Assembly (NCBI GenBank): GCA_035505475.1
Contig: DATJQT010000175.1
Coordinates: 1 to 53,333 of the forward strand
Reading direction: 5' to 3'
Length of the DNA: 53,333 nt
Source: Vulcanimicrobiaceae bacterium
GTDB taxonomy: Bacteria; Methylomirabilota; Methylomirabilia; Methylomirabilales; 2-02-FULL-66-22
A model generated the notes under the pieces. That model was not told the origin of the DNA and searched no databases. It saw only the letters and a list, made by a program, of their open reading frames with translations. Position 1 is the stretch's first letter, and each line of letters begins with the position of its first letter. The translations under genes and the position numbers were made by a program. Below, piece after piece: positions 10,231 through 52,968 of the stretch.

Positions 10231-10929
10231 AATGAGACGTCCTTAACTGTGGTTTCCGTCGTGTGATTTCCCTCGCGGAACTCGGCTCATCGACGCCAAG
10301 AATGACACGAGCCGAGGCTTTAGGTGCAGGCGTTCCCAAATCAGAACCGCATATTCAGCCCTTGCGCGCACTGCTCCGCTCGACTGATCACAAGGCAAGC
10401 GCAGGGCCAAATAGGCAGGGAACGCGATCGTTGCGCAAAAGGTTGAACTGGAACGTATTCGGCACATTGCGTTTCGTCGGTGAGTCCGAATGCTAACGTC
10501 GGGGTGCCAGCGGGTTCCCAGTTGCCAGCCTGCTAACACTCACCGGGCGTGGCCCTAAGTACCGAATATAGACCGCGATCGGGCAGTGGCTGGCACACTG
10601 GCAACTCACTTGCGGATCATCTCCGGGACGGTGACTGCGTTCGTAGCCCGCCCGAGTAGACCGCGCTCACAATGCTCGGCACGTCGATTGCTCGCTTGCA
10701 TGGAGGGACGAGCCTCGGCGAATGAAAAAGGAGAACTGGTTCTACTATTAGCCAGGCTTTCTTTGGCGACGTACCGACGCGTTCGGGTCGGGGGGTCCAG
10801 GCTGTCCTTCGAGACAATCGGCGTACGACAGGCGGCAAGTCAATCGAGAGCCGACCAATTACCCGAACACGAGCCGCCGATCGGTCGCCGTGTAATGTGT
10901 GATTTTATGTAATGATAGGCTAATTCCAA

Positions 10930-12338: not shown

Positions 12339-12687
12339 TCCGTAAACGGGTAGCGGTCGGTCGCTGTTCCGGAGTGACCAATGGCCCCGACAACGTTCAA
12401 GTGTTTCATCCCGGATGGCCGGTCAAGCGCCCGAAAAACAGCAACGCCTATTCGCAGTCCCTCATTTTGCCATCTTCCTTCGCTTTTTTTCTTCTTTTTC
12501 TGCGTTGTCTCCTCTCTTTCCTTCATTCTATCTATCGTTTCCAGTGCCGCTACAATCCCTGCTACGCTCATTTCTGTGTCCTTCCCTAGCCCGCGACAAG
12601 ATCCTGCAAATACTGCGCGTACCCAGTTAGAGATGTCTGATTTTCCGCCGATCACCCCAACCCACGGCCATCGCCACGAGCCTCCCG

Positions 12688-14987: not shown

Positions 14988-15001
14988 GGCGGGTTCCCCC
15001 C

Positions 15002-18413: not shown

Positions 18414-18588
18414 GGCATCCCCTCCAAAAAAACGTCGCCACTACAAGACTCCGTGCTTTTCAGGGGCGGGGGTCCACACGCGGGAGTCCAACTCAGGCGA
18501 GGCAGTGCAAGCGAACTCGTAGTGTCGCCTCGCTCGGTCGTATGCCGCGTTGGTACGGGAACACCGAGCCGCCCCCGAGAGAATGCTC

Positions 18589-20123: not shown

Positions 20124-20344
20124 GACCGTGTCTCCCGGAACCCTGATCATCGACCCCCGCCTATGCGGCTTCCATGCGCAAGATCTTGGGCGTGTCGAAT
20201 GCGGTCAATGCGACGCGGGGTACTCCGGATCCTCCCCGCGCAATCCCCGTGCTTGGTGGACACGGTGGAGGGGGCAAGAAATGCGCGAGCTTCGTTCGTT
20301 TGGCCTGCAGGCAGCGCCCGCTCGCGGCGGTGGGGGCCATCGAC

Positions 20345-24342: not shown

Positions 24343-24798
24343 TCATGGTTGACCTCCTCCTGCCGGGCTACCATCCTTGCCCTGCGCCCGCAGGAGAAGG
24401 ACCGGAACGCGCGCGTGCCGGACCACGTGCTCCGCGACGCTCCCGAGCAACAAACGACTGAGGTTGCTCCGCCCGTGCGTCGACATCGCCACCAAGTCGA
24501 TCGCATTGTCCGCGATATGGGCGAGGATTTCGTGAGACGCTTCCCCGTAGCGCACGGCGGTGTGGACGCGGATCCCTGCCGCACGGAGGCGCACGGCCAA
24601 GTTCGCGACATACGCTTCGGCTTTTTGGACGACGTCGACCTCCTCCGCGGTGGGATCGACCCCGGGGAACACATGGGCCTCGGTGACCCGGAGCAGGCAC
24701 AGCTCGGCCCCGAGGGACCGAACCAATTCCTGTACTCGGGGCAGGACGGCTTCCGCCAGGGGCGATCCGTCGAGCGGGACTAAAATCCGCTTGAACAT
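24343..24798 (-). CDS. Universal stress protein (UspA family)
   Basis: MFKRILVPLDGSPLAE...MSTHGRSNLSRLLLGSVAEHVVRHARVPVLLL. Strong RBS GGAGGGGAGGAAA upstream of ATG 24798. Confidence 0.9.
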   Translation of the reverse strand: MFKRILVPLDGSPLAEAVLPRVQELVRSLGAELCLLRVTEAHVFPGVDPTAEEVDVVQKAEAYVANLAVRLRAAGIRVHTAVRYGEASHEILAHIADNAIDLVAMSTHGRSNLSRLLLGSVAEHVVRHARVPVLLLRAQGKDGSPAGGGQP

Positions 24799-24884
24799 GG
24801 CCCTTTCCTCCCCTCCGCGCCCGGCGCAAGGACCCGCGCCGGGTCGGCGGTCCCGAGTACTTCGATGAAATCGTGCATGGCCAG

Positions 24885-24980
24885 GGGCACGGTTAGCACG
24901 GGACAGCGCGCCGTGCGGACGATCCGCTCCGCAACACTCGTTAGCATCAGATGCGACAGTCCCCGCCGGCCGTGGGCCCC
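24885..24980 (-). pseudogene. C-terminal remnant of a second Usp gene
   Basis: Own translation of another minus frame: GRRGLSHLMLTSVAERIVRTARCPVLTVP, the Usp C-terminal signature. A stop (TAG 25002-25004) lies just upstream and there is no N-terminal part. Confidence 0.55.
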
Positions 24981-25031
24981 ATTTTCCGGCGCGAGCGACG
25001 GCTAAATCCGTTGATAGCAGAGAGGTACTTG

Positions 25032-25202
25032 TTACTCGCGGTTTGCTTGTCTTTCGCGGACGATGAAACCGCCGAACAGGTATGCGGCCGAGACGACGAG
25101 GAGGACTGTGCCCAGGGCCTTCAGGTCGCCTTCGGAAGACATGTAATAGCTTGCACCTCCGCCAAATATCATCACCAGGCACAAGGTAAGCATTGCCGAC
25201 AT
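25032..25202 (-). CDS. Small two-helix membrane protein (56 aa), hypothetical
   Basis: MSAMLTLCLVMIFGGGASYYMSSEGDLKALGTVLLVVSAAYLFGGFIV. GGGGGAGG RBS 6 nt upstream of ATG 25202. The longer track ORF (to 25313) is possible. Confidence 0.45.
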   Translation of the reverse strand: MSAMLTLCLVMIFGGGASYYMSSEGDLKALGTVLLVVSAAYLFGGFIVRERQANRE

Positions 25203-25376
25203 GGAAAACCTCCCCCGTAGACGCGCCCGAGGGGGGCGAGAGCCTTCCCAGGTGAAAAGCCCAGAGTCCGGCCATCCGTCGCCACGCCAAGAAGATGCCA
25301 AGTTATTGCTCATCAGATTTCAACAAGTTGGCGTCTGAACCATTGACGAATGGAAGCCGATCTCATCTGCCCAGGG

Positions 25377-25451
25377 TCATGGAAGAATCACTTCTGAAAA
25401 AGATTCCGTGGCCAACTTCCCGATGATGCGCTCAACCGCTGTTTGACTCAT
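25377..25451 (-). CDS. 24-codon micro-ORF directly downstream of a sigma-54 promoter
   Basis: MSQTAVERIIGKLATESFSEVILP*. The ATG lies about 30 nt downstream of the predicted TSS, with GGAAGGAA upstream. Below the ORF-track cutoff. It may be the head of a decayed longer gene, because the frame continues after the TGA. Confidence 0.3.
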   Translation of the reverse strand: MSQTAVERIIGKLATESFSEVILP

Positions 25452-25489
25452 GATTCCCTGTTCCTTCCTTTCGGACGGCAGACAGGAAT

Positions 25490-25505
25490 TGCATCGTCGG
25501 TGCCA
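25490..25505 (-). promoter_or_regulatory. Sigma-54 type promoter (-24/-12)
   Basis: The minus strand reads TGGCAC-CGACG-ATGCA. GG-N10-GC spacing is exact, and the site is about 110 nt downstream of motif copy D. Confidence 0.6.
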
Positions 25506-25578
25506 CGGGTCGACGGGGATCAGGCGCTTGAAATCTCACGCGATGCGAGGCTCACTCCGTCTGGCTTGATTCGGCGAT

Positions 25579-25614
25579 TTCCAATAGATTGGAAGTGGTC
25601 ACGAAATATTGGAA
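25579..25614 (-). promoter_or_regulatory. Enhancer-like bipartite motif, copy D
   Basis: Minus strand: TTCCAATATTTCGTG-ACCACTTC-CAATCTATTG-GAA. It shares the 15-nt core and the CAA-N4-TTG palindrome with copies A, B and C. Confidence 0.6.
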
Positions 25615-25707
25615 GGGCTTTCTCTGCCATGGCGCTTGCGGCGAGATCGCGGGGCTCCCGTCACCTCCCGGAGAAGGGTTTAAGCTAACGCGGCACCCGT
25701 GGTCGAA

Positions 25708-27057
25708 CTACTCCCGGTCACTACTCGCCGTCTCTTCGGAGCGGATGTCTTCGTGAGCTAGGCGTGGCATCACGCCGCGCCTCCGCCGGGCCACCCGCCA
25801 GATGCCCAGCACGAGCAGCCCCAGGCCCAAGCCACTCATCAGGCTGATACCCAATCGCCGGGCCAGCCCGCCGGGCCCGGCCGCCTGCATCCGCACCCGG
25901 GCCTTGACGCCGAGCTGGGCGACATCCATGAACCCCGGCCGAATCCGCTCGGCGGCCTCGACGGCCTGGAGGGTGCGCCGGTAGTCCTGCTGGAAGAAGC
26001 TGTGCACCGCCTGATCCCAGGCGCGCGCAAAGGGGCTGTCCGCCGTCGGGGTCAAGTTAATCGTGCGCGCGAACTCCTGGACCGTCTCGACCGGGATCAG
26101 GAAATTGAACCCTTGGATCGCCTGATCGCCATCCAGGGTCGTGGAGATGAACGTGGCCACGCCGATCACCTTTCCGCCCGGGCCGAAGGCGGGGCCGCCG
26201 CTATCTCCCCAGGTGATGGCCGCATCCGTCTGGATCACCCGGCGGTTGGTGATGTCAGTCTTGAATCCGGACACCCGGCCGACGGTGACCGAAGCGTCCA
26301 GGGCGGACTGCTTGCTCAGGAAATCATGGTTGAGAACCACCCCGGGATACCCGATCACGAAGAGGGGCTCCCCAATCAACACCCCCTGACTGTTCAAGGC
26401 TAGGGGCACGGTGGGGAGGTCGGTTGCGGCAATCTTGAGCAGGGCGACGTCCTTGCCGAAACGGTCCATCGGACCCATGTCCTGGCGGGCGATCCGGGCA
26501 GGGGCATCGGGGTTGAGTGCGGGGCTATAGGCCATGACCTCGGCCGGGAAGGTCTGGCCGTTCGAGAGGTGGACCTCGAGGTCGGCGGTCAGCTGCACCT
26601 GCCCGCGATTCCGCGGATCGGCGGCCAGGGCGGCGAGCCGCGCCGTGCGGATCCGGTCGGGCAACCGGGCCAGCCCGGGACCACAGGCCTTTTGCACGGC
26701 GGTGTGCACGAAGTCGTCCACGAGCGTCGGATCATTCCTCTTCTCGTAGGAGGCCGTGACCACATGGCCGTTCGTGGCGATGTAGCCATCCGGATGGATC
26801 ACAAACCCGCTGCCGGTTTCGTAATACGGATCGGGCTGGACGGTCTGCGCTGGGCCGGACCCGCAGCGGAGGGTCACCTCGGCGTTGACTTGGCTGCTGA
26901 TCAACACCACGGCCGGCCGGACCCGCAGAATGCTGGCCTCGAGCCGGATTGCGCCCGGGCTCGGACCGGACGTCACCCAGGTAGGCAGCGCCAACCAGCA
27001 GATTGCGGTCGCAATCAGCATCGGACCATGCCGGCAAATCGACATCATCGTCCCCAT
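25708..27057 (-). CDS. Trypsin-like (S1/S1C) serine protease with N-terminal signal and C-terminal TM anchor; no PDZ domain seen
   Basis: Catalytic triad contexts TNGHVV, DVALLKI and GDSGGPAF. C-terminal LMSGLGLGLLVLGIW followed by RVARRRRG. Confidence 0.85.
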   Translation of the reverse strand: MGTMMSICRHGPMLIATAICWLALPTWVTSGPSPGAIRLEASILRVRPAVVLISSQVNAEVTLRCGSGPAQTVQPDPYYETGSGFVIHPDGYIATNGHVVTASYEKRNDPTLVDDFVHTAVQKACGPGLARLPDRIRTARLAALAADPRNRGQVQLTADLEVHLSNGQTFPAEVMAYSPALNPDAPARIARQDMGPMDRFGKDVALLKIAATDLPTVPLALNSQGVLIGEPLFVIGYPGVVLNHDFLSKQSALDASVTVGRVSGFKTDITNRRVIQTDAAITWGDSGGPAFGPGGKVIGVATFISTTLDGDQAIQGFNFLIPVETVQEFARTINLTPTADSPFARAWDQAVHSFFQQDYRRTLQAVEAAERIRPGFMDVAQLGVKARVRMQAAGPGGLARRLGISLMSGLGLGLLVLGIWRVARRRRGVMPRLAHEDIRSEETASSDRE

Positions 27058-27337
27058 GCTGATGGGTATTCCAACACTCGCTGAGCCGGTCGGCCCGCAC
27101 TCAGAACAGCGTTTGTCGCCGCGGCCGCGCTCAGGCCGCCTTGGACTTCCGCTCTGCCCGTGTCAAGAAAGGCCTGCCGTTCCCGGTTGATGTCGTCCGC
27201 CTGCAGTCCGCGGTACGTCCTTCATCACTCCGAGGTGGACGCCTTTGAGCAAAGCCGACGGCTGGGCCGTCCCCCGGACCCGCAGGCGTGCCGGGCCATG
27301 CTGGCTGCTGCGAAGTGGGACAGCAGGCATGGCAAGA

Positions 27338-27616
27338 TCACAACTCGGGCACGTTCCGTTGCAATATGTTCTTGAAGGTCCGGCGCAGCTCGCGGAGCAA
27401 TGCCTCGTCCGGGATGGGCCGCAGAATCGTCCGCACGGTGAAGCCGCAGGTCCGGCAGCGCGTGTACTGGTACTCCCACTCGCCGTCTTGCTCGACGGGA
27501 CTCACGGCCTCCATACCCGTGAAGCAACAGGCGTTCGCTCGCGAGGGGGAGATGATCCGTTCCGGGTACAGGTTCTTCGGCGCTTTCGCGTCGGTGTACT
27601 CAACGATACTCGCCAT
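27338..27616 (-). CDS. Small Cys-containing (zinc-ribbon-like) protein, 92 aa, hypothetical
   Basis: MASIVEYTDAKAPKNLYPERIISPSRANACCFTG...YQYTRCRTCGFTV.... Internal start of track ORF 27338..27793; the upstream part of that ORF covers a promoter-like site. Confidence 0.45.
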   Translation of the reverse strand: MASIVEYTDAKAPKNLYPERIISPSRANACCFTGMEAVSPVEQDGEWEYQYTRCRTCGFTVRTILRPIPDEALLRELRRTFKNILQRNVPEL

Positions 27617-27716
27617 GACTGATGCTCCTACGCACCTCGTGCTTCGAGACATAACCCTCATCACGGCCGGTCGGGGCTCGTTCTGTCGTTCAACAACCGC
27701 GGCAGCAGATGTGTCG

Positions 27717-27732
27717 TGCACGCGGGATGCCA
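27717..27732 (-). promoter_or_regulatory. Sigma-54-like promoter (weaker)
   Basis: The minus strand reads TGGCAT-CCCGC-GTGCA with correct GG-N10-GC spacing. It lies about 100 nt upstream of ATG 27616 and about 240 nt from motif copy A, in divergent arrangement. Confidence 0.4.
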
Positions 27733-27972
27733 CGACCCGTGAAAAAGTCCTGAGCGCAAGAGCAGGCCCACCGGAGGTGGAGGGATAGCGCACAATCCGA
27801 GCGCCCTGGCGGGATAGCGGTAAACGAGCAGGACAACACCCAACACCAAATTATCGTGTTTTTCCGACCAGGACGGGTCGCTGGGTCGCCCGCCTGAAAG
27901 GTACCGCACATCACCGACATCATTCGAGATTTGCCGCCAGATCGATCTGGAGATCGACCGCATCGTTCTGTC

Positions 27973-28010
27973 TTCCAACATTTCGTCACGCGCTTCCAAC
28001 ATCTTGCAAC
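27973..28010 (+). promoter_or_regulatory. Enhancer-like bipartite motif, copy A
   Basis: TTCCAACATTTCGTC-ACGCGCTTC-CAACATCTTG-CAAC. Confidence 0.6.
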
Positions 28011-28082
28011 GCTGGTGCGCCTCGCCTGCATGAAACTGCTGAATGATGGTGCGGGTGTGCGATTCGCGGCCGACCGCTCGCT

Positions 28083-28098
28083 TGGCCCATCGCTTGCT
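28083..28098 (+). promoter_or_regulatory. Sigma-54 type promoter
   Basis: TGGCCC-ATCGC-TTGCT. Exact spacing with one mismatch in the -24 box. It is 111 nt downstream of the start of motif A. Confidence 0.5.
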
Positions 28099-28201
28099 CA
28101 GATGTTCAGCGAGGGCCGGTGATAGGGCCGACAGCAAGCGCGTGGAACAAATCCAGGACTGCTCGGGTGGTCCAGGATCCAGTATATAGAGGGAGGTTGC
28201 G

Positions 28202-28381
28202 ATGCAGAGCCCGTGCTCATTCTATGCTCACGTGCATAACGGAGAGACTTGGGAGCAGATCGCTGAAGCCGTCACGGTCTGCCGGGACCAGCAGAGGGCC
28301 GAAGTACTGGACATCTTCCCAGACGAGCTCTGGACGGCCAGGCGGATAAGCTCGGCCGAACCCATGCCGACGCAAGCGTAA
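28202..28381 (+). CDS. 59-aa hypothetical protein
   Basis: MQSPCSFYAHVHNGETWEQIAEAVTVCRDQQRAEVLDIFPDELWTARRISSAEPMPTQA. It is one codon below the ORF-track cutoff. RBS AGAGGGAGG lies 6 nt upstream. It is bracketed by a sigma-54 promoter and a GC hairpin with a T-run. Confidence 0.45.
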   Translation: MQSPCSFYAHVHNGETWEQIAEAVTVCRDQQRAEVLDIFPDELWTARRISSAEPMPTQA

Positions 28382-28503
28382 TGTCTTAGTCAGAAGTTAA
28401 TTGACGGAACGCCCATAGCGACTTTGACAGTCGCCATTTGCCGACTCTTGCCTGGCCGCCCCACTACTCGCCATCCTTCCCTCCCCGCGAGCTTCCTCCC
28501 CAA

Positions 28504-28541
28504 GCGCCCCGACACAGTTCGGGGCGCCCCGCCTCCGTTTT
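28504..28541 (+). terminator. Intrinsic-terminator-like hairpin
   Basis: GCGCCCCG-acacagtt-CGGGGCGC (8-bp GC stem), followed by CCCGCCTCCGTTTT. Confidence 0.5.
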
Positions 28542-28583
28542 AGCTTCCGCTGCTATCGGTCGGGCGATCCGCTTCGATGGCTT

Positions 28584-28615
28584 TTCCAATATTTCGTGGC
28601 GCTCACAATATGTTG
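28584..28615 (+). promoter_or_regulatory. Enhancer-like bipartite motif, copy B
   Basis: TTCCAATATTTCGTG-GCGCTCA-CAATATGTTG. Confidence 0.65.
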
Positions 28616-28716
28616 CGCGGCCAGGACTGTTTGCCCGACAGATTTGCGAGGTGCGGCCTGACGTAAGTCCCCGGCCAGCCGGCACTTCAGATATTTCGGC
28701 ACGGGAAACACTCTCC

Positions 28717-28732
28717 TGGCACTTCGGTTGCT
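28717..28732 (+). promoter_or_regulatory. Sigma-54 promoter (consensus)
   Basis: TGGCAC-TTCGG-TTGCT, a perfect match to TGGCAC-N5-TTGCW. It is 134 nt downstream of the start of motif B and about 130 nt upstream of ATG 28862. Confidence 0.75.
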
Positions 28733-28861
28733 GATCCAAGGGCACGTAGACGGCAGGCTTCATAGACTGAGAGTCGTGAGCGAGTGCCGCATTCGCAACG
28801 GGTGCCAGGACGCATGGTGCGTCTTGGGACCACTCAATCAACCGCATAGGAGGAAGATCCA

Positions 28862-29299
28862 ATGCAGCGGAAAATGATGTGGGGAGTCTTGATCGCAGTT
28901 CTGGTGGGCGTCAGCATGGTGCCATTCACCCAAGCCGCCAGCCCTGACGCAACCCTCAAGCTGTCCGAGGGATCGGTGGCGGCGGGCGTCGGGTACAGTT
29001 GGGGGAGCGGGACCCTGACCTTCCGCGGCCAGAACTATGCGTTCAAGGTGGACGGAATCTCGGTAGGCACCGTGGGGATCAATCGCGCCGATGCGACCGG
29101 GAGTGTTTACAATCTGAAAAGCCTGGAAGATTTCAATGGGACCTACACCGCGGTGGGCGTCGGGGCCACCGTAGCCGGTGGCGGGCTCGCCGTCACGATG
29201 CGGAACCAGAAGGGCGTCGAGCTCAATCTTGTGGGGATGACCCAGGGACTGGATTTCAAATTCTCCGTGGACGGGGTGAAGTTCACCTTGAATATGTAA
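28862..29299 (+). CDS. Secreted Gly-rich beta-type protein, 145 aa, family not recognised
   Basis: Signal peptide MQRKMMWGVLIAVLVGVSMVPFTQA|AS. Strong RBS AGGAGG. The mature part looks like two related Gly-rich units (VGYSWGSGTLTF.. / VGATVAGGGLAVTM..). Confidence 0.75.
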   Translation: MQRKMMWGVLIAVLVGVSMVPFTQAASPDATLKLSEGSVAAGVGYSWGSGTLTFRGQNYAFKVDGISVGTVGINRADATGSVYNLKSLEDFNGTYTAVGVGATVAGGGLAVTMRNQKGVELNLVGMTQGLDFKFSVDGVKFTLNM

Positions 29300-29312
29300 C
29301 ATGATGGAAATT

Positions 29313-29337
29313 GGGCGGGGCGATTGTCGCCCCGCCC
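29313..29337 (+). terminator. GC-rich hairpin after the secreted-protein gene
   Basis: GGGCGGGGC-gattgtc-GCCCCGCCC (9-bp perfect stem), 14 nt after the stop. No U-tract. Confidence 0.45.
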
Positions 29338-29537
29338 GCCCCCTCGCCGCCTCGAACGTGTCCCCCTGTTATCTCACAATCCTAATCGCCGACTCGACCG
29401 GTTCGGCCAGAAGGCATCTTCGGCCGGAGGCCGTTCTTCTCTGGTCTGGGCAAGGCGCGGGGCCGAGGCGGCGCCAGGCGTGCAAGTCGATTCCAAGCTG
29501 GTGTTCTCCACGGACAAGGTTACGCCATCCGCCCCGC

Positions 29538-29569
29538 TTCCAACATTTCGTGACGCTCGCAACATGTTG
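29538..29569 (+). promoter_or_regulatory. Enhancer-like bipartite motif, copy C
   Basis: TTCCAACATTTCGTG-ACGCTCG-CAACATGTTG. Confidence 0.65.
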
Positions 29570-29666
29570 TGGGCCTCTGGTGGACGCCCACCGCGCCGCA
29601 CCAAAGGCCCTTCGGTAACGTCCCTGCCGGCTACCTTTTCCGGACCGACACACGAAGCCCCCTCCC

Positions 29667-29682
29667 TGGCACTCCTGTTGCT
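29667..29682 (+). promoter_or_regulatory. Sigma-54 promoter (consensus)
   Basis: TGGCAC-TCCTG-TTGCT, 130 nt downstream of the start of motif C. Confidence 0.75.
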
Positions 29683-29742
29683 GTCCTCAGTAGTAGTCGA
29701 GGTAAGCGTTCGGCAGGGACATTGCCGTGGGAGGATCAGGTC

Positions 29743-29883
29743 GTGCGTACGATTGTCCAGCATCACTTCAATAGCCTACACGTCATGGCGCGGCTCACCC
29801 GGTTGGGCGTTTCTCGCCCTCGCGCCCGTGCCTGGGCCCGCAAGTGGGAATCGCTGGTGCACCCGTGGCTGTACGGCCAATAG
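29743..29883 (+). CDS. 46-aa basic leader protein, hypothetical
   Basis: GTG start 7 nt after GGGAGGA. (V/M)RTIVQHHFNSLHVMARLTRLGVSRPRARAWARKWESLVHPWLYGQ. It is the first ORF after sigma-54 promoter C. Confidence 0.4.
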   Translation: MRTIVQHHFNSLHVMARLTRLGVSRPRARAWARKWESLVHPWLYGQ

Positions 29884-29931
29884 ACGCGGGCGTCCATCGT
29901 GCTGCGCAGTGGAGTGGAAGGAAGTCCACGC

Positions 29932-30666
29932 ATGCCGACCAATGCAACCACCCAAGGGATACTCACCGCCTCTGCCGCACTTGGAGGCCAGGGCATCGCG
30001 CTCGAGGCCAAACATCTCTCACGGGCGATCGCGGGCAAGGTGCTGGTTGACGACATCAGCGTCCAGGTGCAGCCAGGCGAGATTCTGGCGGTGGTCGGGC
30101 CAAGCGGGGCGGGCAAATCCTCCTTCCTTCGATTGCTCAATCGGCTGGATGAGCCAACCGGCGGGACCGTGTTCTTCCAGGGCCAGGACTATCGGACGAT
30201 CGCGCCGCAAACCCTGCGGCGTCGCGTCGGCATGGTCATGCAGATGGCCTCCCTCTTCCCGGGGACAGTGGCGGACAACATTGCCTTTGGCCCTCGCCAG
30301 AACCAAAAGACCATCGCTCCCGAACAGATCCTGGCCCTGTTGGGCCGCGTGGGGCTGCCCGGATACAAGGACCGGGATGTCAGCCACCTCTCGGGAGGTG
30401 AAGCACAACGCGTCTCGCTGGCCCGCACGCTGGCGAACGACCCTGTGGTGCTCCTCTTGGATGAGCCCACGTCGGCCCTCGATGACGCGTCGGAACGGGG
30501 CATCGAAGGGCTGCTGCTGAGCATCATCCGAGAGCGGCAGATGACCTGTGTGATGATCACCCACGACATGCCGCAGGCCACGCGCATCGCCCACCGCACC
30601 ATGATCATCGAAGCCGGCAAGATGGTGGCGATTGGCCTAACCGAGGAGGTGCTCCGTGCTGGCTGA
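29932..30666 (+). CDS. ABC transporter ATP-binding protein, FetA/YbbL-like
   Basis: Walker A GPSGAGKSS, signature LSGGEAQRVSLAR, Walker B LLLDEPTSALD. Paired with a UPF0014 permease. The start could also be GTG 29899. Confidence 0.8.
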   Translation: MPTNATTQGILTASAALGGQGIALEAKHLSRAIAGKVLVDDISVQVQPGEILAVVGPSGAGKSSFLRLLNRLDEPTGGTVFFQGQDYRTIAPQTLRRRVGMVMQMASLFPGTVADNIAFGPRQNQKTIAPEQILALLGRVGLPGYKDRDVSHLSGGEAQRVSLARTLANDPVVLLLDEPTSALDDASERGIEGLLLSIIRERQMTCVMITHDMPQATRIAHRTMIIEAGKMVAIGLTEEVLRAG

Positions 30667-31498
30667 GGTGATGCACAGCCTGAGTCGTGATGTCCTCGAG
30701 GGATTCGCCCAGGCAGGAGTCGCCATCGGGCTGTGCCTCGTCGTGGCGCTGCTGTGCCGCCGATTCGCCGTCCACGTCGAGCGGGAGACGGTGGTTTCGC
30801 TCGCGCGGGGCCTCGCGCAGATGACCCTGGTGGGGTTGATCCTCGCCCTGCTCCTCCAGCGCCATCTCCTCGTGGGCGGGTTCATCCTGCTCGCCATGAC
30901 GGGGGCCGCAGCCCTGACGGCCGCACGCCGGGCCCAGGGAATACCGGACGCGCTGCGGCTCTCGTTCTATTCGATTGCGGCCGGCTCGGGCATCGTGGTC
31001 GCGGGGATGCTCACGACCGGCACGCTCGCTGCGAACGTCGCCACCCTGGTGCCGGTGGGCAGCATGATCGTCGCCAACACTATGAATGCGTGCGCCCAGG
31101 CCCTCGAGCGGTTCCGGGCCGAGGTCACCGCGCACGTGGGCCAGGTCGAGGCGGGCCTGGCGCTCGGGGCCGACCCTGCCGTGGCCGTGGCGCCCTGCAT
31201 GGAGCGCGCGGTCTACGCCAGCCTCCTCCCCCGCCTGGACATGCTGAAATCGTTAGGCTTGGTCTGGATCCCGGGGGTCATGGCGGGCATGGTGGTGTCC
31301 GGGGCCAGCCCCCTCTATGCCGGGATCTACCAGTTTGTCATTGTCGCCATGATTCTGGCCGCGTCTGGCATCACCGGCCTAGTGGCCACGCTGCTCATTC
31401 GGGCGCGCGTCTTCTCGCCAGCCGCGCAGCTCCTGCTCCGCCCGTCGGAGCCGCGCCCCGTGGTAGCGGGCTACGCAGGTCCTGGGAAGGAGGCATGA
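30656..31498 (+). CDS. ABC permease of the UPF0014 / FetB (YbbM) family
   Basis: VPVGSMIVANTMNA, EAGLALGADP and SLGLVWIPGVMAGMVVSGASPLYAGIYQFVIVAM parallel conserved blocks of E. coli FetB. It overlaps the ATPase gene by 11 nt. Confidence 0.65.
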   Translation: MLAEVMHSLSRDVLEGFAQAGVAIGLCLVVALLCRRFAVHVERETVVSLARGLAQMTLVGLILALLLQRHLLVGGFILLAMTGAAALTAARRAQGIPDALRLSFYSIAAGSGIVVAGMLTTGTLAANVATLVPVGSMIVANTMNACAQALERFRAEVTAHVGQVEAGLALGADPAVAVAPCMERAVYASLLPRLDMLKSLGLVWIPGVMAGMVVSGASPLYAGIYQFVIVAMILAASGITGLVATLLIRARVFSPAAQLLLRPSEPRPVVAGYAGPGKEA

Positions 31499-32757
31499 TG
31501 AAGATCCGGCCCTTCTCTCAGTATCCCCGATACCCCATAGCACTTGCCACCGCGGTCCTGATTGTAGGCATGGCGGTCGCCGGCTGCTCGGTCCCCTCTT
31601 CGGGCCAGCCCCAGGCCACGACGGCCAAGCAGGCGAACAGCATCCCCGTCACTGCGGCCACAGTGGAGAGCCGCGCCGTGCCCGTCCAGGTGAACGCCAT
31701 CGGCAATGTGCAGGCCTCTTCCAGGGTGACGATCAAGACCCGGGTAGACGGCCCGCTGACGCAGATCGCGTTTCGCGAGGGGCAGGAAGTCAAGTCGGGG
31801 GATCCGCTCTTTGTCATCGACCCCTGCCCGTTCCAGATAGCCCAGGAGCAGGCACAGGCAAAACTCGGCGAGGCCCAAGCGATGGTCCGGCGGGCCCAGG
31901 CCAACCTGGCCCGCGACCAGGCCCAGCTGAAGTACGCGCAGATTGAGGAGAGGCGTTACGACGATCTGGTCCGGAACGGAGACATCTCCCAGCAGCAATA
32001 TGACCTGAAGAAAACCGCTGCCGATGCCGCGCAGGCCACCGTCGCGGCGGACGGGGAGACCATCGCGAACGCCATGGCCGCCGTGCAGGCGGCTCAGGAG
32101 GCCGTGGAGGCTGCCCGGCTCCAGCTCAGCTATACCACAATCCATTCCCCCATCGCCGGGCAGACCGGCCCACTTCTCGTGCACCTGGGGGCCATCGTCA
32201 AGAACAACGCGACATCTCTGGTGGTCATCAACCAGATCCACCCCACGTATGTCGCGTTCGCCGTTCCCGAGCAGCATCTTCCCGAGATCAAGCAGTTCAC
32301 GGCCCAGCATCCGCTCAAGGTCGAAGTGTTCGTCCCCAACACCAGTACCCCATTGGCGCAGGGGACACTGACATTCATCGACAACACGGTGGACCAGGCC
32401 ACGGGAACGATCCAGTTGAAGGCCACCTTCTCGAATCCCCAGAACACCCTGTGGCCGGGACAGTTCGTGAATGTGGTCCTCACGCTGAGGACCGTGCCGA
32501 ATGCCACAGTCGTGCCGGGCCAGTCCGTTCAGACGGGCCAGCAGGGCCAGTTCGTGTACGTGATCCGGCCCGATCAGACGGTGGAGTCGCGCCCCGTGGC
32601 GGTGTCCCGGACGGCTGAGCCCCTGAGCATCATCGCCAAAGGCCTCTCGCCGGGCGAGCAGGTGGTGACCGACGGTCAGGTGCAGTTGCATCCCGGCGCT
32701 CGGGTCTCCATCCAGCCCACCGCGTCGGTGGCGGCTGCGGGAGGGTCCGGGTCATGA
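31495..32757 (+). CDS. RND efflux periplasmic adaptor (MFP) lipoprotein
   Basis: Lipobox VAGC. RVDGPLTQIAFREGQEVKSGDPLFVIDP, coiled-coil segment, and YTTIHSPIAGQTG. ATG 31495 overlaps the fetB-like stop (ATGA). The track ORF start at 30733 is spurious. Confidence 0.88.
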   Translation: MMKIRPFSQYPRYPIALATAVLIVGMAVAGCSVPSSGQPQATTAKQANSIPVTAATVESRAVPVQVNAIGNVQASSRVTIKTRVDGPLTQIAFREGQEVKSGDPLFVIDPCPFQIAQEQAQAKLGEAQAMVRRAQANLARDQAQLKYAQIEERRYDDLVRNGDISQQQYDLKKTAADAAQATVAADGETIANAMAAVQAAQEAVEAARLQLSYTTIHSPIAGQTGPLLVHLGAIVKNNATSLVVINQIHPTYVAFAVPEQHLPEIKQFTAQHPLKVEVFVPNTSTPLAQGTLTFIDNTVDQATGTIQLKATFSNPQNTLWPGQFVNVVLTLRTVPNATVVPGQSVQTGQQGQFVYVIRPDQTVESRPVAVSRTAEPLSIIAKGLSPGEQVVTDGQVQLHPGARVSIQPTASVAAAGGSGS

Positions 32758-35700
32758 ACATGCCTGAGATGTTCATCCGCCGGCCCGTCATGACGAGCCT
32801 CGTCATGCTGGGCATCCTGCTCTTCGGTATCATGGGTTACCGTCTCCTGCCCCTGAGCGACCTCCCCACCGTGGACTTCCCAACGATCCAGGTTTCGGCC
32901 TCGCTCCCCGGGGCCAGCTCCGAGACGATGGCCTCGTCCGTGGCGACTCCCCTGGAGAAGCAGTTCTCCACCATCGCGGGCATCGACAATATGACCTCGA
33001 CCAGCGCGCTCGGGGCGACCCAGATCACCATCCAGTTTGCCTTGAGTCGTGACATCAATACGGCAGCGCAAGATGTTCAGGCGGCCATCAGCGCCGCCCA
33101 GCGGCAGCTCCCTCTGGGCATGCCCAGCCCGCCCACCTATAGCAAGGTGAACCCGGCGGACGCCCCGGTCCTGTACCTGTCCCTCAGCTCCAACATGCTG
33201 CCGCTCTCCACGGTGGACAACTATGCGGAGACCACCATGGCCCAGCGCCTCTCCATGGTGAGCGGCGTCTCGCAGGTCATGGTCTTCGGAGCCCAGCAAT
33301 ACGCCGTCCGTGTCCAGCTCGACCCCTCGGCCCTCGCGTCGCGCGGGATCGGCATCGATGACGTGCAGACCGCCATCGCCAAGGCCAACGTGAACCGGCC
33401 CACGGGGACGCTGCAGGGCCGCCATCAGACTTTCACCATCCAGGCCACGGGGCAGCTCACGGACGCCGCGGCCTACCGGCCGGTCATCGTGGCGTACCGG
33501 AACGGCTCCCCCGTGCGCCTTACGCAGCTGGGGCGGGTCATCGACAGCGTCCAGAACGACCTGACGGCCGCCTGGCAGGACGACACGCGCGCGATCGTGC
33601 TGGCCATCCAGCGGCAGCCCGGCAGCAACACGGTCCAGGTCGTGGACGCGGTCCGCCAGCTCCTCCCCACCTTTCGCTCCCAGATCCCAGGCGGCGTCGC
33701 CATGAACGTCCTCTACGATCGGTCCGTGTCCATCCGCGCCTCCGTGAGCGACGTGAAGTTTACCCTGCTGCTCACCATCGGCCTGGTGATCCTGGTGATC
33801 TTCCTCTTCCTCAGGAATGTCCCGGCCACCCTGATCCCCAGCCTGGCCCTCCCCATGTCCATCGTGGGAACCTTCGCGGTCATGTACGTACTGGGCTTCA
33901 CTCTGGACAACCTGTCGCTCATGGCCCTCACCCTTTCCGTCGGCTTCGTGGTGGACGATGCCGTGGTCACGCTGGAGAACATCGTCCGGCACATCGAGCG
34001 CGGGGAAGGCGTGTTGGAGGCGGCGCTTCAAGGCTCTCGCGAGATCGGCTTCACCATCCTGTCCATGACGCTGTCGCTGGCGGCGGTCTTCATCCCCCTG
34101 CTCTTCATGGGGGGCATCGTCGGCCGCCTCTTCCACGAGTTCGCCGTCACTGTCACATCCGCCATCCTGGTCTCGGGCTTCGTCTCGCTGACACTCACCC
34201 CCATGCTCTGCTCCCGGTTCTTGCGCCCGCTCAGCGGGAGGCGGCATGGCCGGCTCTACAACTGGACCGAGCAGGGCTTCGACGTCATGCTCGCGGTCTA
34301 TCGGCGCACGCTGGAAGGGGTCCTGGGACACCGCCGAGTGATCCTGGTCATCTTCCTGCTCTCGCTCGCGGGCACCGGCTACCTCTTCATGGTGGTGCCG
34401 AAGGGATTTCTTTCCAGCGAGGACACGGGCCAGATCATCGGCTTCACCCAGGCGGCGCAGGACATCTCGTTCGAGGCCATGGTGCGTCATCAGCAGCAGG
34501 CGGCCGCCATCGTCCGCCAGGATCCGAACGTGAGGACGTTCATGTCCAGCGTGGGCGGCACCGGGGCCAACTCGACCGGCAACACCGGCCGGCTGAACAT
34601 CTACTTGAAACCCTTGAAGCAGCGGACGCTGTCGGCGGACCAGGTTATCCAGGAGCTGCGGCCCAAGTTTGCCAAGCTGGTCGGCCTGCAGGTGTTCCTG
34701 CAGAACCCCCCAACCATCCCCATCGGCGGGAACCTCACCAAGGCCCTGTACCAGTACACCTTGACGGGGCCGGACACCAAGGCCCTGTACCAGGCCGCGC
34801 TGCAGATGGAGGCCAAGATGCGGGCGCTGCCGGGCTTGCAGAGCGTGAACTCCGATATGCAGATCAGCAGCCCACAGGCCACGGTCCAGATCGACCGGGA
34901 CAAGGCCTCGGCGCTCGGCGTGACGGCCGACCAGGTCGAGAGCGCCTTGTACGACGCCTACGGCAGTCGGCAGGTGTCCACCATCTACACCCCGAGCAAC
35001 GAGTACTGGGTGATTATGGAGCTGTTGCCCCAGTACCAGCAGGACCCTGCGGCCCTGTCCATGCTTTACATCCGTGCCGCCACGGGGCAGCTCGTGCCCT
35101 TGAACGCCGTGGCGCGGATCACGCGCGGCGTGGGGCCCCTCACGGTGAACCACCTGGGACAGCTCCCGGCGGTAACCATCTCTTTCGACCTGAGCCCCGG
35201 GACCTCACTCGGCGCGGCGGTGGCCGCGATCCAGCAGGCCGCTCAGGGGACCCTGCCCGCTGCAATCTCGGGGAGCTTCCAGGGAAGCGCGCAGGCCTTC
35301 CAGGCATCCCTGCAGGGGCTCGGCCTCCTCCTCGTGTTGGCCATCCTGGTCATTTACATCGTGCTGGGGATCCTGTACGAGAGTTTCATCCATCCGCTGA
35401 CCATCCTCTCGGGCCTCCCCACGGCAGGCTTCGGGGCGCTCTTGACCCTGCTCCTCTTCCGGACGGATCTCAACATCTACGCCTTCGTGGGCATCATCAT
35501 GCTGGTGGAGATCGTGAAGAAGAACGCCATCATGATGATCGACTTCGCCGTGGCGGAACAACGCAAGGGCTTGCCGGCGGCCGACGCCATATTTCAGGGG
35601 TGTCTCCTTCGCTTCCGCCCCATCATGATGACCACCATGGCCGCCCTGATGGGCACGCTCCCCATCGCGCTGGCCACCGGGCAGGGTGCCGAATCCCGAG

Positions 35701-35862
35701 CTGAGTCTCGCCGTGGTCGGCGGCCTGCTGGTCTCTCAGCTCCTGACCCTCTACCTCACGCCCGTGATCTACCTCTTCATGGAAGAAGCGCGCGGCTGGC
35801 TGACGCGGTACCGGAGATCCGCCAGGATCGTGTCGACGGAGGAGCGCAGGCAGGCCGCATGA
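32754..35862 (+). CDS. RND (HAE1, AcrB/MdtB-like) inner-membrane efflux pump with an apparent +1 frameshift near 35695-35700
   Basis: MPEMFIRRPVMTSLVMLGILLFG... is RND-like throughout. After ...ATGQGAES the track frame becomes non-homologous. The +1 frame from 35698 reads ELSLAVVGGLLVSQLLTLYLTPVIYLFMEEARGW...* (stop 35860-35862), the canonical TM12. Confidence 0.85.
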
Positions 35863-35894
35863 GGTACTGCTCCCCGACGCAATGTATTCCGTGC

Positions 35895-38126
35895 TCAGGG
35901 TAATGGGACCCGCAAAAGGTCGTGCAGGATGGCGTCGAGGGTGTTGACGGCGTCCACCAGCGCGTCCGTCAAATTAGCGAAGGGGGCGTTGGCCAGCGGC
36001 GGCTCGCCCCGGAGCGCAGCCTGGAGTGGGCGGAGCGCGGGAATCGGGAGCGGGGGTTTCAGGGTTCTGAGCGAGACGGCCAGGTGGCTCATCGTGGTGC
36101 TGAGTGCCGCGGCTAGCGCGTCCACTCGCCGAGCTGTCACTTCGCTCTCCCCATCGGCCTCACCGGTCGGCGAGGACGGCGACACGGCGAGCGAGTGTAG
36201 GGCCAGCTCTTCATGGGCCAGCCGGCCCACCGCCGCCATCACGGCGATAGCGACCGGAGGCGTGAGGGGCGGCTGCGCCGGTTCGGCGACCAGTCGGGCC
36301 GTGGAAGCCTCGGCGTCGCTGCGCGCGCGGCGGGCGGCGCCTTGGAGCGCCCGGAGGCGGGCGAGGTCGAGTTGCTTGGGGTGGGCGATTTGTCGGAGCA
36401 GTGCGACTGCATACTCGCGGTGAGCCTCGATGAGGCGAGCGAGTTTCTCCGGAGCGGTGCCCCCCTCCCAGGTCGGCCACAGGACGTAGGCGGTGAGCGC
36501 CAAGACCGCTCCGATGGCCGTGTCGATCAGCCGAGCCTCGGCCGTGGGGATCGCCGGGATGCCGAGGATGTCGAGGAGCATCACGATGAACGCGGTAATG
36601 AACCCGCTGAAGAGGAGGTAGTTCACCTCGAACAGGGCGTAGGCCGCCGCGATGCTAATGCCGGCCGCGGCAAACAGCCCGCCTTGATCCAGGTGACCGA
36701 GCTGCACTGCTGCTGCACTGAGGCCGACTCCCAGCACCGTGCCCACTGCACGCTGGATGCTGCGGGAAAGCGTGGAGCTGTAGTCCGGCTTGAGTACAAT
36801 AAAGATCGTCAGCACCACCCAGCGGCCCACGCTCAAGCCGGTCGCTTGAACCAGCACCTCCGCCACACCCGCGACCACCGCCACGCGCAGTGCGTGCCGC
36901 CCCGCTTCGGTGGCGAGGGTCAGATTGGCTCGGAGCGTCGCGACGACGGCCGTGACGCCGCCGTCCGCCCGCGCCACGATAGGCACAGTTCCCGCGCCCT
37001 CCACGGCGGACTGCGTGGGCAGGGCATCGAGGCGGGCCAGGATACCCGCGACGGCGCGCACCTGCCCGAGCAGCGCCTCGCCGGCCCAGCGCCAGGACGC
37101 CCCGGCGGACACGGTCAGCCTCGCCGCCCGCCGGCTCAGCTCAGACACCCGCGCGGCCCGCTCCGCTCGCCCCGCACCCAGGGCGCCCACGATGTCGTCC
37201 AGGATCCTGGCGGCGACGCCAGCAAACTTCCGGATCTCCCTCGCGTCGCCCGCGGGGGCGGAAGCCGCGTGGGCGGCCAGCGCGGCCAGCGCGGCGCGGA
37301 TCCGCTCGGCTTCCTCGAGCAGGTCGACGAAGGTCAGCCGGGCGGCCAGGGGCAGCAGCGGGTTGGGATCCTCAAAGGCATTGGTTGCGGGGAAAGCGAC
37401 CGGCGAGGGCGGCCCGAATCTGCCTGCCGCCAGGCTGGAGGCGTATTCGGCCAGCGCCCGGTAGGACTCGGCCAGTGCGGCCCGTTCGGCTTGACCTGGC
37501 CAGACGATCCAGGATCCGGCGACCAGGGCCGCTTGGAACAGTCCGCCGGCGAGCACAAAGCCGGCCCGCACCGCCGCGCCTGCAGGGCCGAGCGGCAGCC
37601 CGACGGCGATGAGCAGGCCGACCGACCACTGAAGGACCGCGACGCTCAGCCGGGGCCCCAGGCAGACCACGAGGCCGGCGACGTACGCCCAGACGATCAC
37701 CACCGGCACCAAGAGCCACGGCAACGTGGCAGCCGTGGTCGCTCCCACGAAGGTGGAGACCGCCATGCCGACGCTGGCTACCACGATCGCCGCGAGGCGA
37801 CTCCGGCTCACGCCCTGAAACGACGCGAACCCCGCGGGCAGCGCCCCCAGGGCGGCGAAGGCGCCATCTTCGATCCTGCCACTGGCCCAGCCGAGGATAA
37901 GCGGCAGGACAACACCAACAGCTACCCGAGCGGCGCGCCAGGCAGCGATAGCGCGCCACTGGAAAGGCCCGAGCTGCAGTGTGCTCCACCGAAACCCACT
38001 GAGGAGGCTCGGGCGGGACCGCGCAACGCCCTGCACTAGCCGATGCCGCCCGGGCGACGACTGGCTTCTGTGGGTTGCAGACCTAGAGCCATTAGAGGGC
38101 TTCTTCATTCTTGCCGCAGTTCCCAT
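35895..38126 (-). CDS. FUSC-family (YccS/fusaric-acid-resistance-like) integral membrane protein
   Basis: 743 aa. N-terminal polytopic half, a long Ala/Arg-rich helical linker, and a second membrane half. The true start may be an internal Met. Confidence 0.65.
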   Translation of the reverse strand: MGTAARMKKPSNGSRSATHRSQSSPGRHRLVQGVARSRPSLLSGFRWSTLQLGPFQWRAIAAWRAARVAVGVVLPLILGWASGRIEDGAFAALGALPAGFASFQGVSRSRLAAIVVASVGMAVSTFVGATTAATLPWLLVPVVIVWAYVAGLVVCLGPRLSVAVLQWSVGLLIAVGLPLGPAGAAVRAGFVLAGGLFQAALVAGSWIVWPGQAERAALAESYRALAEYASSLAAGRFGPPSPVAFPATNAFEDPNPLLPLAARLTFVDLLEEAERIRAALAALAAHAASAPAGDAREIRKFAGVAARILDDIVGALGAGRAERAARVSELSRRAARLTVSAGASWRWAGEALLGQVRAVAGILARLDALPTQSAVEGAGTVPIVARADGGVTAVVATLRANLTLATEAGRHALRVAVVAGVAEVLVQATGLSVGRWVVLTIFIVLKPDYSSTLSRSIQRAVGTVLGVGLSAAAVQLGHLDQGGLFAAAGISIAAAYALFEVNYLLFSGFITAFIVMLLDILGIPAIPTAEARLIDTAIGAVLALTAYVLWPTWEGGTAPEKLARLIEAHREYAVALLRQIAHPKQLDLARLRALQGAARRARSDAEASTARLVAEPAQPPLTPPVAIAVMAAVGRLAHEELALHSLAVSPSSPTGEADGESEVTARRVDALAAALSTTMSHLAVSLRTLKPPLPIPALRPLQAALRGEPPLANAPFANLTDALVDAVNTLDAILHDLLRVPLP

Positions 38127-40814: not shown

Positions 40815-40910
40815 AGAGACCTCCCGTCTCTGAACCCGCAGCGGGCCTGGGAGGATCTGCCAAATCCTCCCAGGCTACGTGCGGATAGCCGTATCCTGTG
40901 CAGTCGTAGG

Positions 40911-42642: not shown

Positions 42643-42904
42643 AGTCTTCCTGCTGCCGTGACGGGGTCTGCCGCCGACCGCATGATATACGGCAAGCGAC
42701 GTGCCAAGAGACTGCTCTCGACGTCGAAGGCTTGCCACGGTCCGTAGTGTGGGCAATCGGTGTTTCGCGGACACCCAAGGTCGCAGTATATTGCGAGAGT
42801 GACGAAATGTTGGTAGGCACAAGCGCGACCCGCACGATGATGACCTGCACTTTCACCGTCGCCACGGTGCAGCGCCTTGGCTGCGGCGCGCCGGGGCGAG
42901 CTTC

Positions 42905-52885: not shown

Positions 52886-52937
52886 GTTACGACGCTATCA
52901 CCAGCTGTGTTTCGCATGTTCGTGAATTTTCCGGGTT

Positions 52938-52968
52938 AATAACTTGCGAGCGCCAAGCAATATTGGAA
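52938..52968 (-). promoter_or_regulatory. Enhancer-like motif, degenerate copy E (no convincing -24/-12 partner found)
   Basis: Minus strand: TTCCAATATTGCTTG-GCGCTCG-CAAGTTATT. Matches copy C at TTCCAA-ATT and GCGCTCGCAA. Confidence 0.35.

Follow-up and report, generated by a model that had tools for sequence, protein, structure and literature searches.

A tandem dyad element paired with sigma-54-type promoters in a bacterial contig, and its counterpart beside a predicted activator gene in Nitrospira

What is the short sequence that recurs between genes, each time at a similar distance from a sigma-54-type promoter, in the 53,333-nucleotide stretch of contig DATJQT010000175.1 analysed here (positions 1 to 53,333; hereafter the window), and which regulator might it serve? 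An initial annotation of this DNA had noticed four copies of the element, each followed by a GG-N10-GC sequence, and had proposed that the arrangement reflects the upstream activator sequence of a bacterial enhancer-binding protein (bEBP). We found that the elements exist and are non-random, that their pairing with -24/-12 promoter sequences has a fixed geometry, that they are conserved across two phyla, and that an activator gene accompanies them in Nitrospira. We therefore consider it likely that the element is an enhancer working with predicted sigma-54 promoters, and we weigh below the identity of its activator, the points that speak against this assignment, and three other explanations.

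The core of the element, CCAAYATTTCGTS (13 nt), has five exact matches in the window, compared with 0.01 expected from dinucleotide-preserving shuffles, and the complete element of about 35 bp is present as five full copies and one degenerate copy, every one of them intergenic and oriented toward the downstream gene. The four annotated copies all lie where they had been placed (27973, 28584 and 29538 on the plus strand and 25614 on the minus strand), while two more, which we call E and F, had been overlooked. The annotated layout, a 15-nt core followed by a CAA-N4-TTG palindrome, corresponds to sequence that is present, but a more apt description is a tandem pair of 16-mers, each TYSCAA-N4-TTGSRA, whose starts are 19 bp (copies B, C, E and F), 20 bp (D) or 21 bp (A) apart, i.e., about two helical turns; the promoter-distal 16-mer is almost invariant (TTCCAAYATTTCGTSA) and the proximal one is a looser dyad. 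Copy A (27973..28009, plus strand) comprises TTCCAACATTTCGTCA at 27973 and TTCCAACATCTTGCAA at 27994, which score 25.7 and 21.8 against a position weight matrix (PWM) built from the sites, the 99.99th percentile of the window being 16.8. Copies B (28584..28618, plus strand; TTCCAATATTTCGTGG and TCACAATATGTTGCGC) and C (29538..29572, plus strand; TTCCAACATTTCGTGA and TCGCAACATGTTGTGG) were likewise identified by both sequence and PWM. On the minus strand, copy D (25579..25614) consists of TTCCAATATTTCGTGA and the perfect dyad TTCCAATCTATTGGAA (PWM scores 28.0 and 18.1), and copy E (42781..42815), a full copy reading TACCAACATTTCGTCACTCTCGCAATATACTGCGA, consists of TACCAACATTTCGTCA and TCGCAATATACTGCGA (22.9 and 18.7). 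Copy F (52935..52968, minus strand), located 5' of a 36-residue open reading frame (ORF) and a Usp gene, reads TTCCAATATTGCTTGG-CGC-TCGCAAGTTATTAACC, scores 13.2 and is probably decayed or weak. Beyond these loci the PWM found nothing further above 13 bits in the window, and since an Rfam scan of the whole window returned no RNA family, the conserved blocks are not known RNA motifs.

Each of the five full copies is followed on the same strand by a near-consensus -24/-12 sequence. These are P_A (TGGCCCATCGCTTGCT, 28083..28098, plus strand, one mismatch to TGGCAC-N5-TTGCW), which stands 109 nt beyond the CCAAY of copy A and has a predicted start at ~28109; P_B (TGGCACTTCGGTTGCT, 28717..28732, plus strand, a perfect match) at 132 nt, predicted start ~28743; P_C (TGGCACTCCTGTTGCT, 29667..29682, plus strand, also perfect) at 128 nt, predicted start ~29693; P_D (TGGCACCGACGATGCA, 25490..25505, minus strand, one mismatch) at 108 nt, predicted start ~25479; and P_E (TGGCACGTCGCTTGCC, 42691..42706, minus strand, one mismatch) likewise at 108 nt, predicted start ~42680. 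The first four had been annotated, two of them correctly as perfect matches, and the geometry claimed for them holds, but their spacing of 110–134 nt becomes 109–133 nt when counted from the start of the motif to the start of TGGC. The pattern TGGCACNNNNNTTGCW with at most one mismatch has eight sites in the window against 1.75 expected, a number reached by none of 100 shuffles; five of the eight lie 108–132 nt 3' of a motif on its own strand, and randomizing the positions of the eight sites 200,000 times never paired even three of the five motifs. In all five paired promoters, GG and GC are exactly 10 bp apart within a TGGCAC-N5-TTGCW-like context (0–1 mismatch), and each promoter lies 27–120 nt 5' of a start codon with a ribosome-binding site, on the strand of that gene. 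The same distance recurs outside the window: across the window, its relatives and Nitrospira, 26 of the 27 sites measured have the motif 108–145 nt from the -24/-12 element (counting the acidobacterial contig L055, at 118 nt), the exception being metagenome contig L123, whose best partner within the 260 nt scanned matches 7 of 11 positions at 163 nt. Strict same-strand pairing of this kind, seen in the window as well as in related metagenome contigs and some 20 Nitrospira genomes, bears out the upstream-activator geometry that had been proposed. A weaker, divergent -24/-12 site that had been suggested at 27717-27732 has two mismatches and was rejected as a further promoter, sites of that stringency being no more frequent than chance (25 in the window against 23.3 expected). 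Within the spacer between copy B and P_B there is also a weak third 16-mer-like site, TTCAGATATTTCGGCA (28686-28701, plus strand, 11.2 bits), 31 nt 5' of the -24 element.

Several copies within 27 kb, with an IS630-type transposase gene and duplicated gene fragments nearby, might also suggest a functionless dispersed repeat, either of the repetitive extragenic palindrome (REP) or miniature inverted-repeat transposable element (MITE) kind or a remnant of segmental duplication. In an alignment of the five window regions and two relatives (A2), however, identity is confined to the element and the -24/-12 sequence, with the intervening 70–95 nt unrelated, so the window copies are not segmental duplications. 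The similarity is limited to 25–37 nt (the element of ~35 bp) between unrelated flanks, the copies are without exception intergenic and co-oriented with the downstream gene, the full copies are paired with -24/-12 elements, and the element is conserved at a syntenic regulatory position in a different phylum. The repeat explanation is thus already largely refuted, and we give it almost no credence.

The other phylum came to light in a genome scan (one genome per species) that returned at least 118 loci, at least 22 of them from Nitrospira or other Nitrospirales; the other matches listed were mostly conserved Burkholderia or Chitinophagaceae sequence with neither a second site nor a -24/-12 element, and served as negative controls. 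In Nitrospira the element reads TCCCAAYATTTCGTGA-N3-TCCCAATATTTTGGGA, and across some 20 genomes of Nitrospira/Nitrospirales it stands 132–145 nt 5' of an invariant TGGCAY-N5-TTGCT. The gene order is the same at every Nitrospira locus that is long enough to show it: an activator gene, the element, the sigma-54-type promoter, a gene for an 89-residue STAS protein, and a gene for an extracytoplasmic function (ECF) sigma factor. The activator is large, with three to five GAF domains, in most cases a PAS domain, a Sigma54_activat domain and HTH_8. At L084 and L146, the two loci followed beyond the sigma gene, one or two ORFs 3' of it resemble zf-HC2 anti-sigma factors, the matches being weak. When ten Nitrospira genomes were aligned (A1), the only invariant blocks were the element, a TCAA-N4-TT box, the TGGCA...GTTGC of the promoter and the gene start; the TCAA-N4-TT box, which lies between element and promoter, resembles the consensus for integration host factor (IHF). 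Where an Mla-like operon has been inserted behind the activator gene, in strain Nam80 (L145), the element has remained with the STAS-ECF operon, which points to the latter as the target. The module looks like an undescribed sigma-54-to-ECF sigma cascade, and our full-text searches of the literature on Nitrospira and sigma-54 activators turned up no account of either motif or module. Genes for MsrPQ-like, zinc alcohol dehydrogenase and AhpC-like proteins are often found near it. Two contigs of a genome labelled Chloroflexota (BC3.16), L031 and L118, also carry the module; around the motif L118 is identical to Nitrospira sp. HKST-UBA08 (L039) and L031 differs at a few bases, and both contigs are probably mis-binned.

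The Nitrospira loci also bear on the idea that the motif is itself a promoter in tandem with the sigma-54 site, either a sigma-70 promoter (-35 TTCCAA, -10 CAAYAT) or an autoregulated ECF promoter. One can read TTCCCA-N17-CAATAT in the Nitrospira version, and ECF sigma operons, one of which the motif precedes there, are commonly autoregulated. Yet the most conserved bases, ATTTCGT, would then sit in the spacer, which promoters do not conserve; the hexamers are poor relative to the sigma-70 consensus, and a sigma-70-like scan of 22.5–31 kb of the window detected none; alignment A1 has no conserved -10 after GGGAAT at ECF spacing; and nothing would explain why the motif is so strictly paired with -24/-12 elements at a fixed distance. 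We regard a promoter function of the motif as very unlikely.

If the element is an enhancer, which protein would bind it? We infer a single bEBP, a GAF-sensor AAA+ activator of FhlA-like type, as in Nitrospira. Over the AAA+ and helix-turn-helix (HTH) domains, recognition helix included, the Nitrospira activator shares 56% identity with E. coli FhlA (HTH GAAAILGLKPTTLEARMKKLGI, compared with GAAQRLGLKRTTLLSRMKRLGI in FhlA), whereas the N-terminal regions of the two cannot be aligned. The best NCBIfam match is FhlA, the sole one of the top three that aligns to the C-terminus, and JGI labels the Nitrospira proteins "formate hydrogenlyase transcriptional activator". At 414 bits, however, the score lies far below the equivalog cut-off of 830 and comes from the AAA+/HTH half, so that the protein is not an FhlA equivalog, and while both have GAF-type sensors, the Nitrospira activator has three to five GAF domains plus PAS. 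In a protein search with this activator only Nitrospira orthologues appeared among the best 120 matches.

The DNA site invites the same comparison. The FhlA enhancer consensus, CATTTCGTACGAAATG, is a 16-bp dyad of 6-4-6 form (Leonhartsberger et al. 2000, as tabulated in PMC4987338). The new sites are also 16-bp 6-4-6 dyads, and copies A, C and E have the exact FhlA half-site CATTTCGT within their distal 16-mers, a resemblance that the initial annotation, which had not recognised the motif as an NtrC, NifA or PspF site, had missed. In E. coli, the fdhF and hyp enhancers carry repeated TTTCGTC units ~70–90 nt 5' of the -24/-12 element, with GAATTTCGTCGCC and GTCATTTCGACATC in the hyp upstream enhancers and TTTCGTCACG in that of fdhF; copy A shares 10 of 10 bases with the fdhF string and copy E shares 9 of 10 (TTTCGTCAC). 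These likenesses are offset by clear differences: only the left half of the consensus, CATTTCGT, is present and the right half is absent, the dyad axis lies elsewhere, the half-site of the dyad is TYCCAA rather than CATTTC so that CATTTCGT is out of register, and two tandem 16-mers stand 19–21 bp apart. The FhlA regulon of E. coli and Salmonella comprises hyc, hyp, fdhF and hydN-hypF, with HycA as anti-activator and formate as the signal. At the level of target genes, unit D of the window lies 5' of hyp and hydrogenase genes, as would befit an FhlA regulon, but the hydrogenase is of the uptake Hyb type and the targets include envelope, efflux, malic-enzyme and sigma-factor genes. Among the scanned window ORFs there was no Pfam domain indicating formate dehydrogenase (fdhF) or a hyc-type (group 4) hydrogenase, HycA itself not having been searched for. 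Membership in the FhlA regulon thus fails on three counts, namely enhancer consensus, equivalog score and formate hydrogenlyase gene content; the system would nevertheless work in the manner of FhlA, with a predicted FhlA-like activator.

Comparison with other bEBP systems gives a similar picture of shared architecture and distinct sequence. Tandem or dyad sites ~100–150 bp 5' of a GG-N10-GC promoter are a feature of the NtrC, NifA, NorR, DctD and ZraR systems, which the Nitrospira loci resemble further in having an IHF-like box in between and an activator gene adjoining its target. NtrC recognizes TGCACC-N5-GGTGCA and NifA recognizes TGT-N10-ACA. The enhancers tabulated in PMC4987338 include GT-N7-AC for NorR, TGTC-N10-GACA for GlrR, and that of PspF. 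The element is unlike the sites of NorR, GlrR, PspF, NtrC and NifA, in agreement with the earlier statement that it was not recognised as a known NtrC, NifA or PspF site.

Several observations weigh against the assignment of the element as an enhancer for an FhlA-like activator. No sigma-54 activator gene and no rpoN were found on the 62.5-kb contig that contains the window (L119; ENA ERZ27256505 k141_2361738, a 62,468-bp metagenome contig, nearly all of which is the window), either in domain scans of the window or in the remaining 9.1 kb. At L146 (13473-13507), a Nitrospira locus, both 16-mers are perfect TCCCAA-N4-TTGGGA dyads that lack the ATTTCGT string and CATTTCGT; this variant suggests TCCCAA as the contacted half-site and shows CATTTCGT to be dispensable, and the match to the FhlA half-site may thus be coincidental, with TYCCAA the half-site that is contacted. 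Copy F has no convincing -24/-12 element within 160 nt; the sole candidate, TGGCACGGCGATTGGA (52565-52550), has no -12 GC and is separated from the copy by 403 nt, and this usp promoter at 52550 in turn has no canonical enhancer above PWM background. The window copies have no convincing IHF-like box, which was found only in Nitrospira. A STAS gene in the window has a sigma-54-type promoter at 10677 with no canonical enhancer copy 5' of it in the PWM scan. Finally, the motif is absent 5' of homologues of the unit B gene (EipA family) at 82, 80, 77, 73, 70 and 65% identity.

With regard to the first of these points, the earlier claim that the window holds no enhancer-binding protein gene was borne out by domain scans and tblastn alike, a tblastn search with the Nitrospira activator giving no match in the window, the rest of L119 or the related metagenome loci. 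Any activator in the window organism would be encoded outside the contig, and we see roughly an even chance that it is a counterpart of the Nitrospira protein; such a counterpart would be expected to have an HTH resembling LGLKPTTLEARMKKLGI. The presence of rpoN, the dependence on sigma-54, the transcription starts and the protein binding are likewise predictions, made from the DNA sequence.

The STAS gene had been left out of the earlier inventory of sigma-54 promoters. It encodes 96 residues (10930-11220, plus strand), is homologous to the STAS gene downstream of the element in Nitrospira (tblastn 34% identity, E-value 9e-8) and matches Pfam STAS_2 below the cut-off (E-value 0.001). Its promoter, CGGCACGTCGATTGCT (10677..10692, plus strand), is among the near-consensus -24/-12 sites of the window and is near-identical in the related contig L124. 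There are ~700 nt of non-coding DNA 5' of this gene.

This good -24/-12 sequence with no motif implies that another type of enhancer must exist in the organism, which lends something to a further explanation: that the element serves as operator for a regulator outside the AAA+ class, for example a repressor or some accessory dimeric HTH protein, that modulates sigma-54 promoters, and that the true enhancer is another, unrecognised element. A 6-4-6 dyad (TTCCAA-N4-TTGGAA) is typical of many dimeric HTH regulators, and no activator gene lies near the window copies. Yet alignment A1 offers no other conserved block that might be the enhancer, apart from the IHF-like box; a position 108–145 nt 5' of the -24 element is the classical one for an enhancer and too distant for direct occlusion of polymerase; and the Nitrospira copies of the motif show genetic linkage to an activator gene. 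We consider an operator of this kind improbable, more plausible all the same than a promoter function.

On the preferred reading, in which the element is an enhancer, dimers of the activator would occupy both 16-mers and assemble into an active oligomer, DNA looping would deliver this oligomer to the closed sigma-54 RNA polymerase complex on the GG-N10-GC promoter 108–132 nt 3', possibly with the aid of the IHF-like site in Nitrospira, and ATP hydrolysis would open the promoter. At least five window units (A, B, C, D and E) would be wired to the enhancer in this way. No new mechanism is involved, the system being of the classical bEBP/sigma-54 type. The GAF/PAS sensors together with the gene set (hydrogenase, Usp, Dps, malic enzyme and efflux genes in the window; MsrPQ-like and AhpC-like genes near the Nitrospira module) suggest redox, hypoxia or energy stress as the inducing signal.

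A known cascade offers a parallel to the Nitrospira module. In Borrelia, Rrp2 and RpoN act upstream of the sigma factor RpoS, in a system that is generally described as having no classical distal enhancer. In Nitrospira, too, the enhancer and the sigma-54 promoter precede a gene for a second sigma factor, so that activator and sigma-54 would turn on another sigma regulon; the differences are that this second sigma factor is of the ECF type and would be co-transcribed with a STAS protein and putative zf-HC2 anti-sigma factors, and that no sigma factor gene lies 3' of the window copies.

How stable is the wiring of genes to the element? Six high-GC contigs (L123, L124, L125, L126, L129 and L131) emerged when metagenomes were scanned with the window-type pattern, and all of them except L123 retain the motif with a -24/-12 element at 133–145 nt. 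L129 carries the orthologue of the unit B gene (88.6% nucleotide identity) with the motif kept and TGGCATTTCGGTTGCT 133 nt 3' of it; L125, L126 and L131 have the motif with TGGCACGGCTCCTGCC at 135–136 nt, 5' of a small ORF; and in L124 the -24/-12 element is at 145 nt and a STAS-type promoter follows further on. L123 has a motif like that of copy A, homology to the window stops before P_A, and no good -24/-12 element follows. Among homologues of unit B, the motif is present at 87% identity (L129), and since it is missing from those at 65–82% identity, as described above, the wiring of genes to the enhancer appears evolutionarily recent and changeable. At L142 (3089-3104), from the same sample, the 82%-identical EipA homologue has a sigma-54-like promoter, CGGCACCGCGATTGCT, 92 nt 5' of its start codon and no such enhancer; it may answer to a different activator. 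A second acidobacterial instance of the architecture is L055 (5355-5490, on a contig of an Acidobacteriota genome), a further locus from the genome scan, where CTCCAATATTTCGTGG-N3-ACCCAATATCTTGGGT is followed at 118 nt by CGGCTCAAAGCTTGCT, 5' of a gene for a small secreted protein.

The genes behind the five window promoters are diverse. Unit A is a single ORF for a 59-residue protein (28202..28381, plus strand) that has no Pfam match and is called as a gene in public collections; hairpins follow its stop codon, and a terminator-like hairpin at 28520-28537 agrees with the annotation of a 59-residue protein with its own terminator. The product of unit B (28862..29299, plus strand), a secreted protein of 145 residues, could be assigned to the EipA/DUF1134 family (envelope integrity protein A; Pfam PF06577) with an E-value of 1.3e-7 and 32 bits against a cut-off of 30.8; 353 homologues were found, one of them named DUF1134. 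Unit C (29743..35903, plus strand) begins with an ORF for a basic protein of 46 residues (29743-29883), followed by genes for a FetA-like ATP-binding cassette (ABC) ATPase (to 30666; Pfam ABC_tran), a FetB/UPF0014 permease (30656-31498; UPF0014), a membrane-fusion protein (to 32757; HlyD_D23) and an AcrB-type pump of the resistance-nodulation-division (RND) class (32754-35903; ACR_tran), domains that match the FetAB-like ABC and RND operon previously described; judging from their common strand and short gaps, these genes would be co-transcribed.

The proximal genes of unit D (24343..25452, minus strand; Pfam Usp and HypA) are a micro-ORF of 24 residues (25452-25378), a 56-residue membrane protein (25202-25032), a C-terminal Usp fragment (24947-24780) whose ORF overlaps the start of the intact usp and which is probably the remnant of a tandem usp pair, and the intact usp (24801-24343). 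Downstream on the same strand, to ~12.7 kb, are hypA, hypC, hypD and hypE and a Hyb-type NiFe hydrogenase; HypA was identified by Pfam and HypE by its AIRS domains, and the hypC and hypD assignments come from inspecting ORF position and translation by eye rather than from a domain scan. After the hyp genes come those for a multihaem cytochrome c and a cytochrome b, then the hydrogenase small subunit, an iron-sulphur protein, an NrfD-like protein, the large subunit and a HycI protease, the Pfam matches in this region being NiFeSe_Hases, Oxidored_q6, NrfD and HycI. The Hyb-type (group 1) cluster spans 12688-20150 (minus strand), directly 3' of the hyp genes. A terminator scan found no terminator-like site between P_D and hypD, and transcription from P_D would probably read through into the hyp and Hyb-type hydrogenase genes. 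Unit E (39114..42599, minus strand) encodes an NAD-dependent malic enzyme (42599-40911; Pfam malic and Malic_M), whose 562-residue gene call was confirmed in L119, and an Asp-Al_Ex/TrkA_C permease (40814-39114; Asp-Al_Ex).

Regulation in uncultured soil Acidobacteriota and in Nitrospira, which are key nitrifiers, is almost unmapped, and what we offer here is a model with a defined 35-bp enhancer, predicted start sites for five transcripts, a family of candidate activators and a candidate sigma-54-to-ECF cascade, together with a PWM that can be used to define the whole regulon in complete genomes of these groups. Tiny orphan proteins and an EipA-family protein would come under one predicted switch with hydrogenase maturation and central-carbon genes, which gives a hint of when they are expressed. 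In its most far-reaching form the model would make the motif the DNA code of a conserved, so far uncharacterised multi-GAF/PAS FhlA-like activator common to Nitrospira and soil Acidobacteriota. In Nitrospira there would be a three-tier cascade in which activator and sigma-54 turn on an ECF sigma factor gated by STAS and anti-sigma factors; in the window organism the motif would have been recruited to connect a clustered "energy-limitation and envelope-stress island" of Hyb-type hydrogenase/hyp, Usp, malic enzyme, EipA, FetAB, RND efflux and tiny proteins; and the activator would act as a master switch, for persistence or hypoxia, in two lineages that rank among the most abundant in soil and wastewater. 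We put this combination forward as speculation, and think it rather doubtful that all of its parts hold together.

Elsewhere in the window are glycogen and glycolysis genes, lutABC, and genes for a fumarase, a Dps/ferritin protein, a thiamine pyrophosphate (TPP) enzyme and another Usp. The window proteins are singletons in clustering at 90% identity. The fumarase has very many soil relatives at 87–91% identity, the only named ones (87–88%) being from Candidatus Angelobacter (Acidobacteriota, Terriglobia). On the evidence of this one protein we treat the organism as a probable soil acidobacterium. An IS630-type transposase gene (DDE_3 and HTH domains; 48086-49159, plus strand) lies between the fumarase and Dps genes. 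Just 5' of enhancer copy E, non-coding debris at 42945-43333 duplicates pieces of the fumarase gene (46912-47152, 79–80% identity) and a piece of a FUSC-family gene (37767-37922, 89% identity), signs of past rearrangement. In addition, a 31-nt direct repeat with 94% identity is present at 12341-12371 and 52026-52056; the latter copy is inside the usp gene at 52 kb, and the former, just 5' of a gene for a solute-binding protein, may be a usp fragment.

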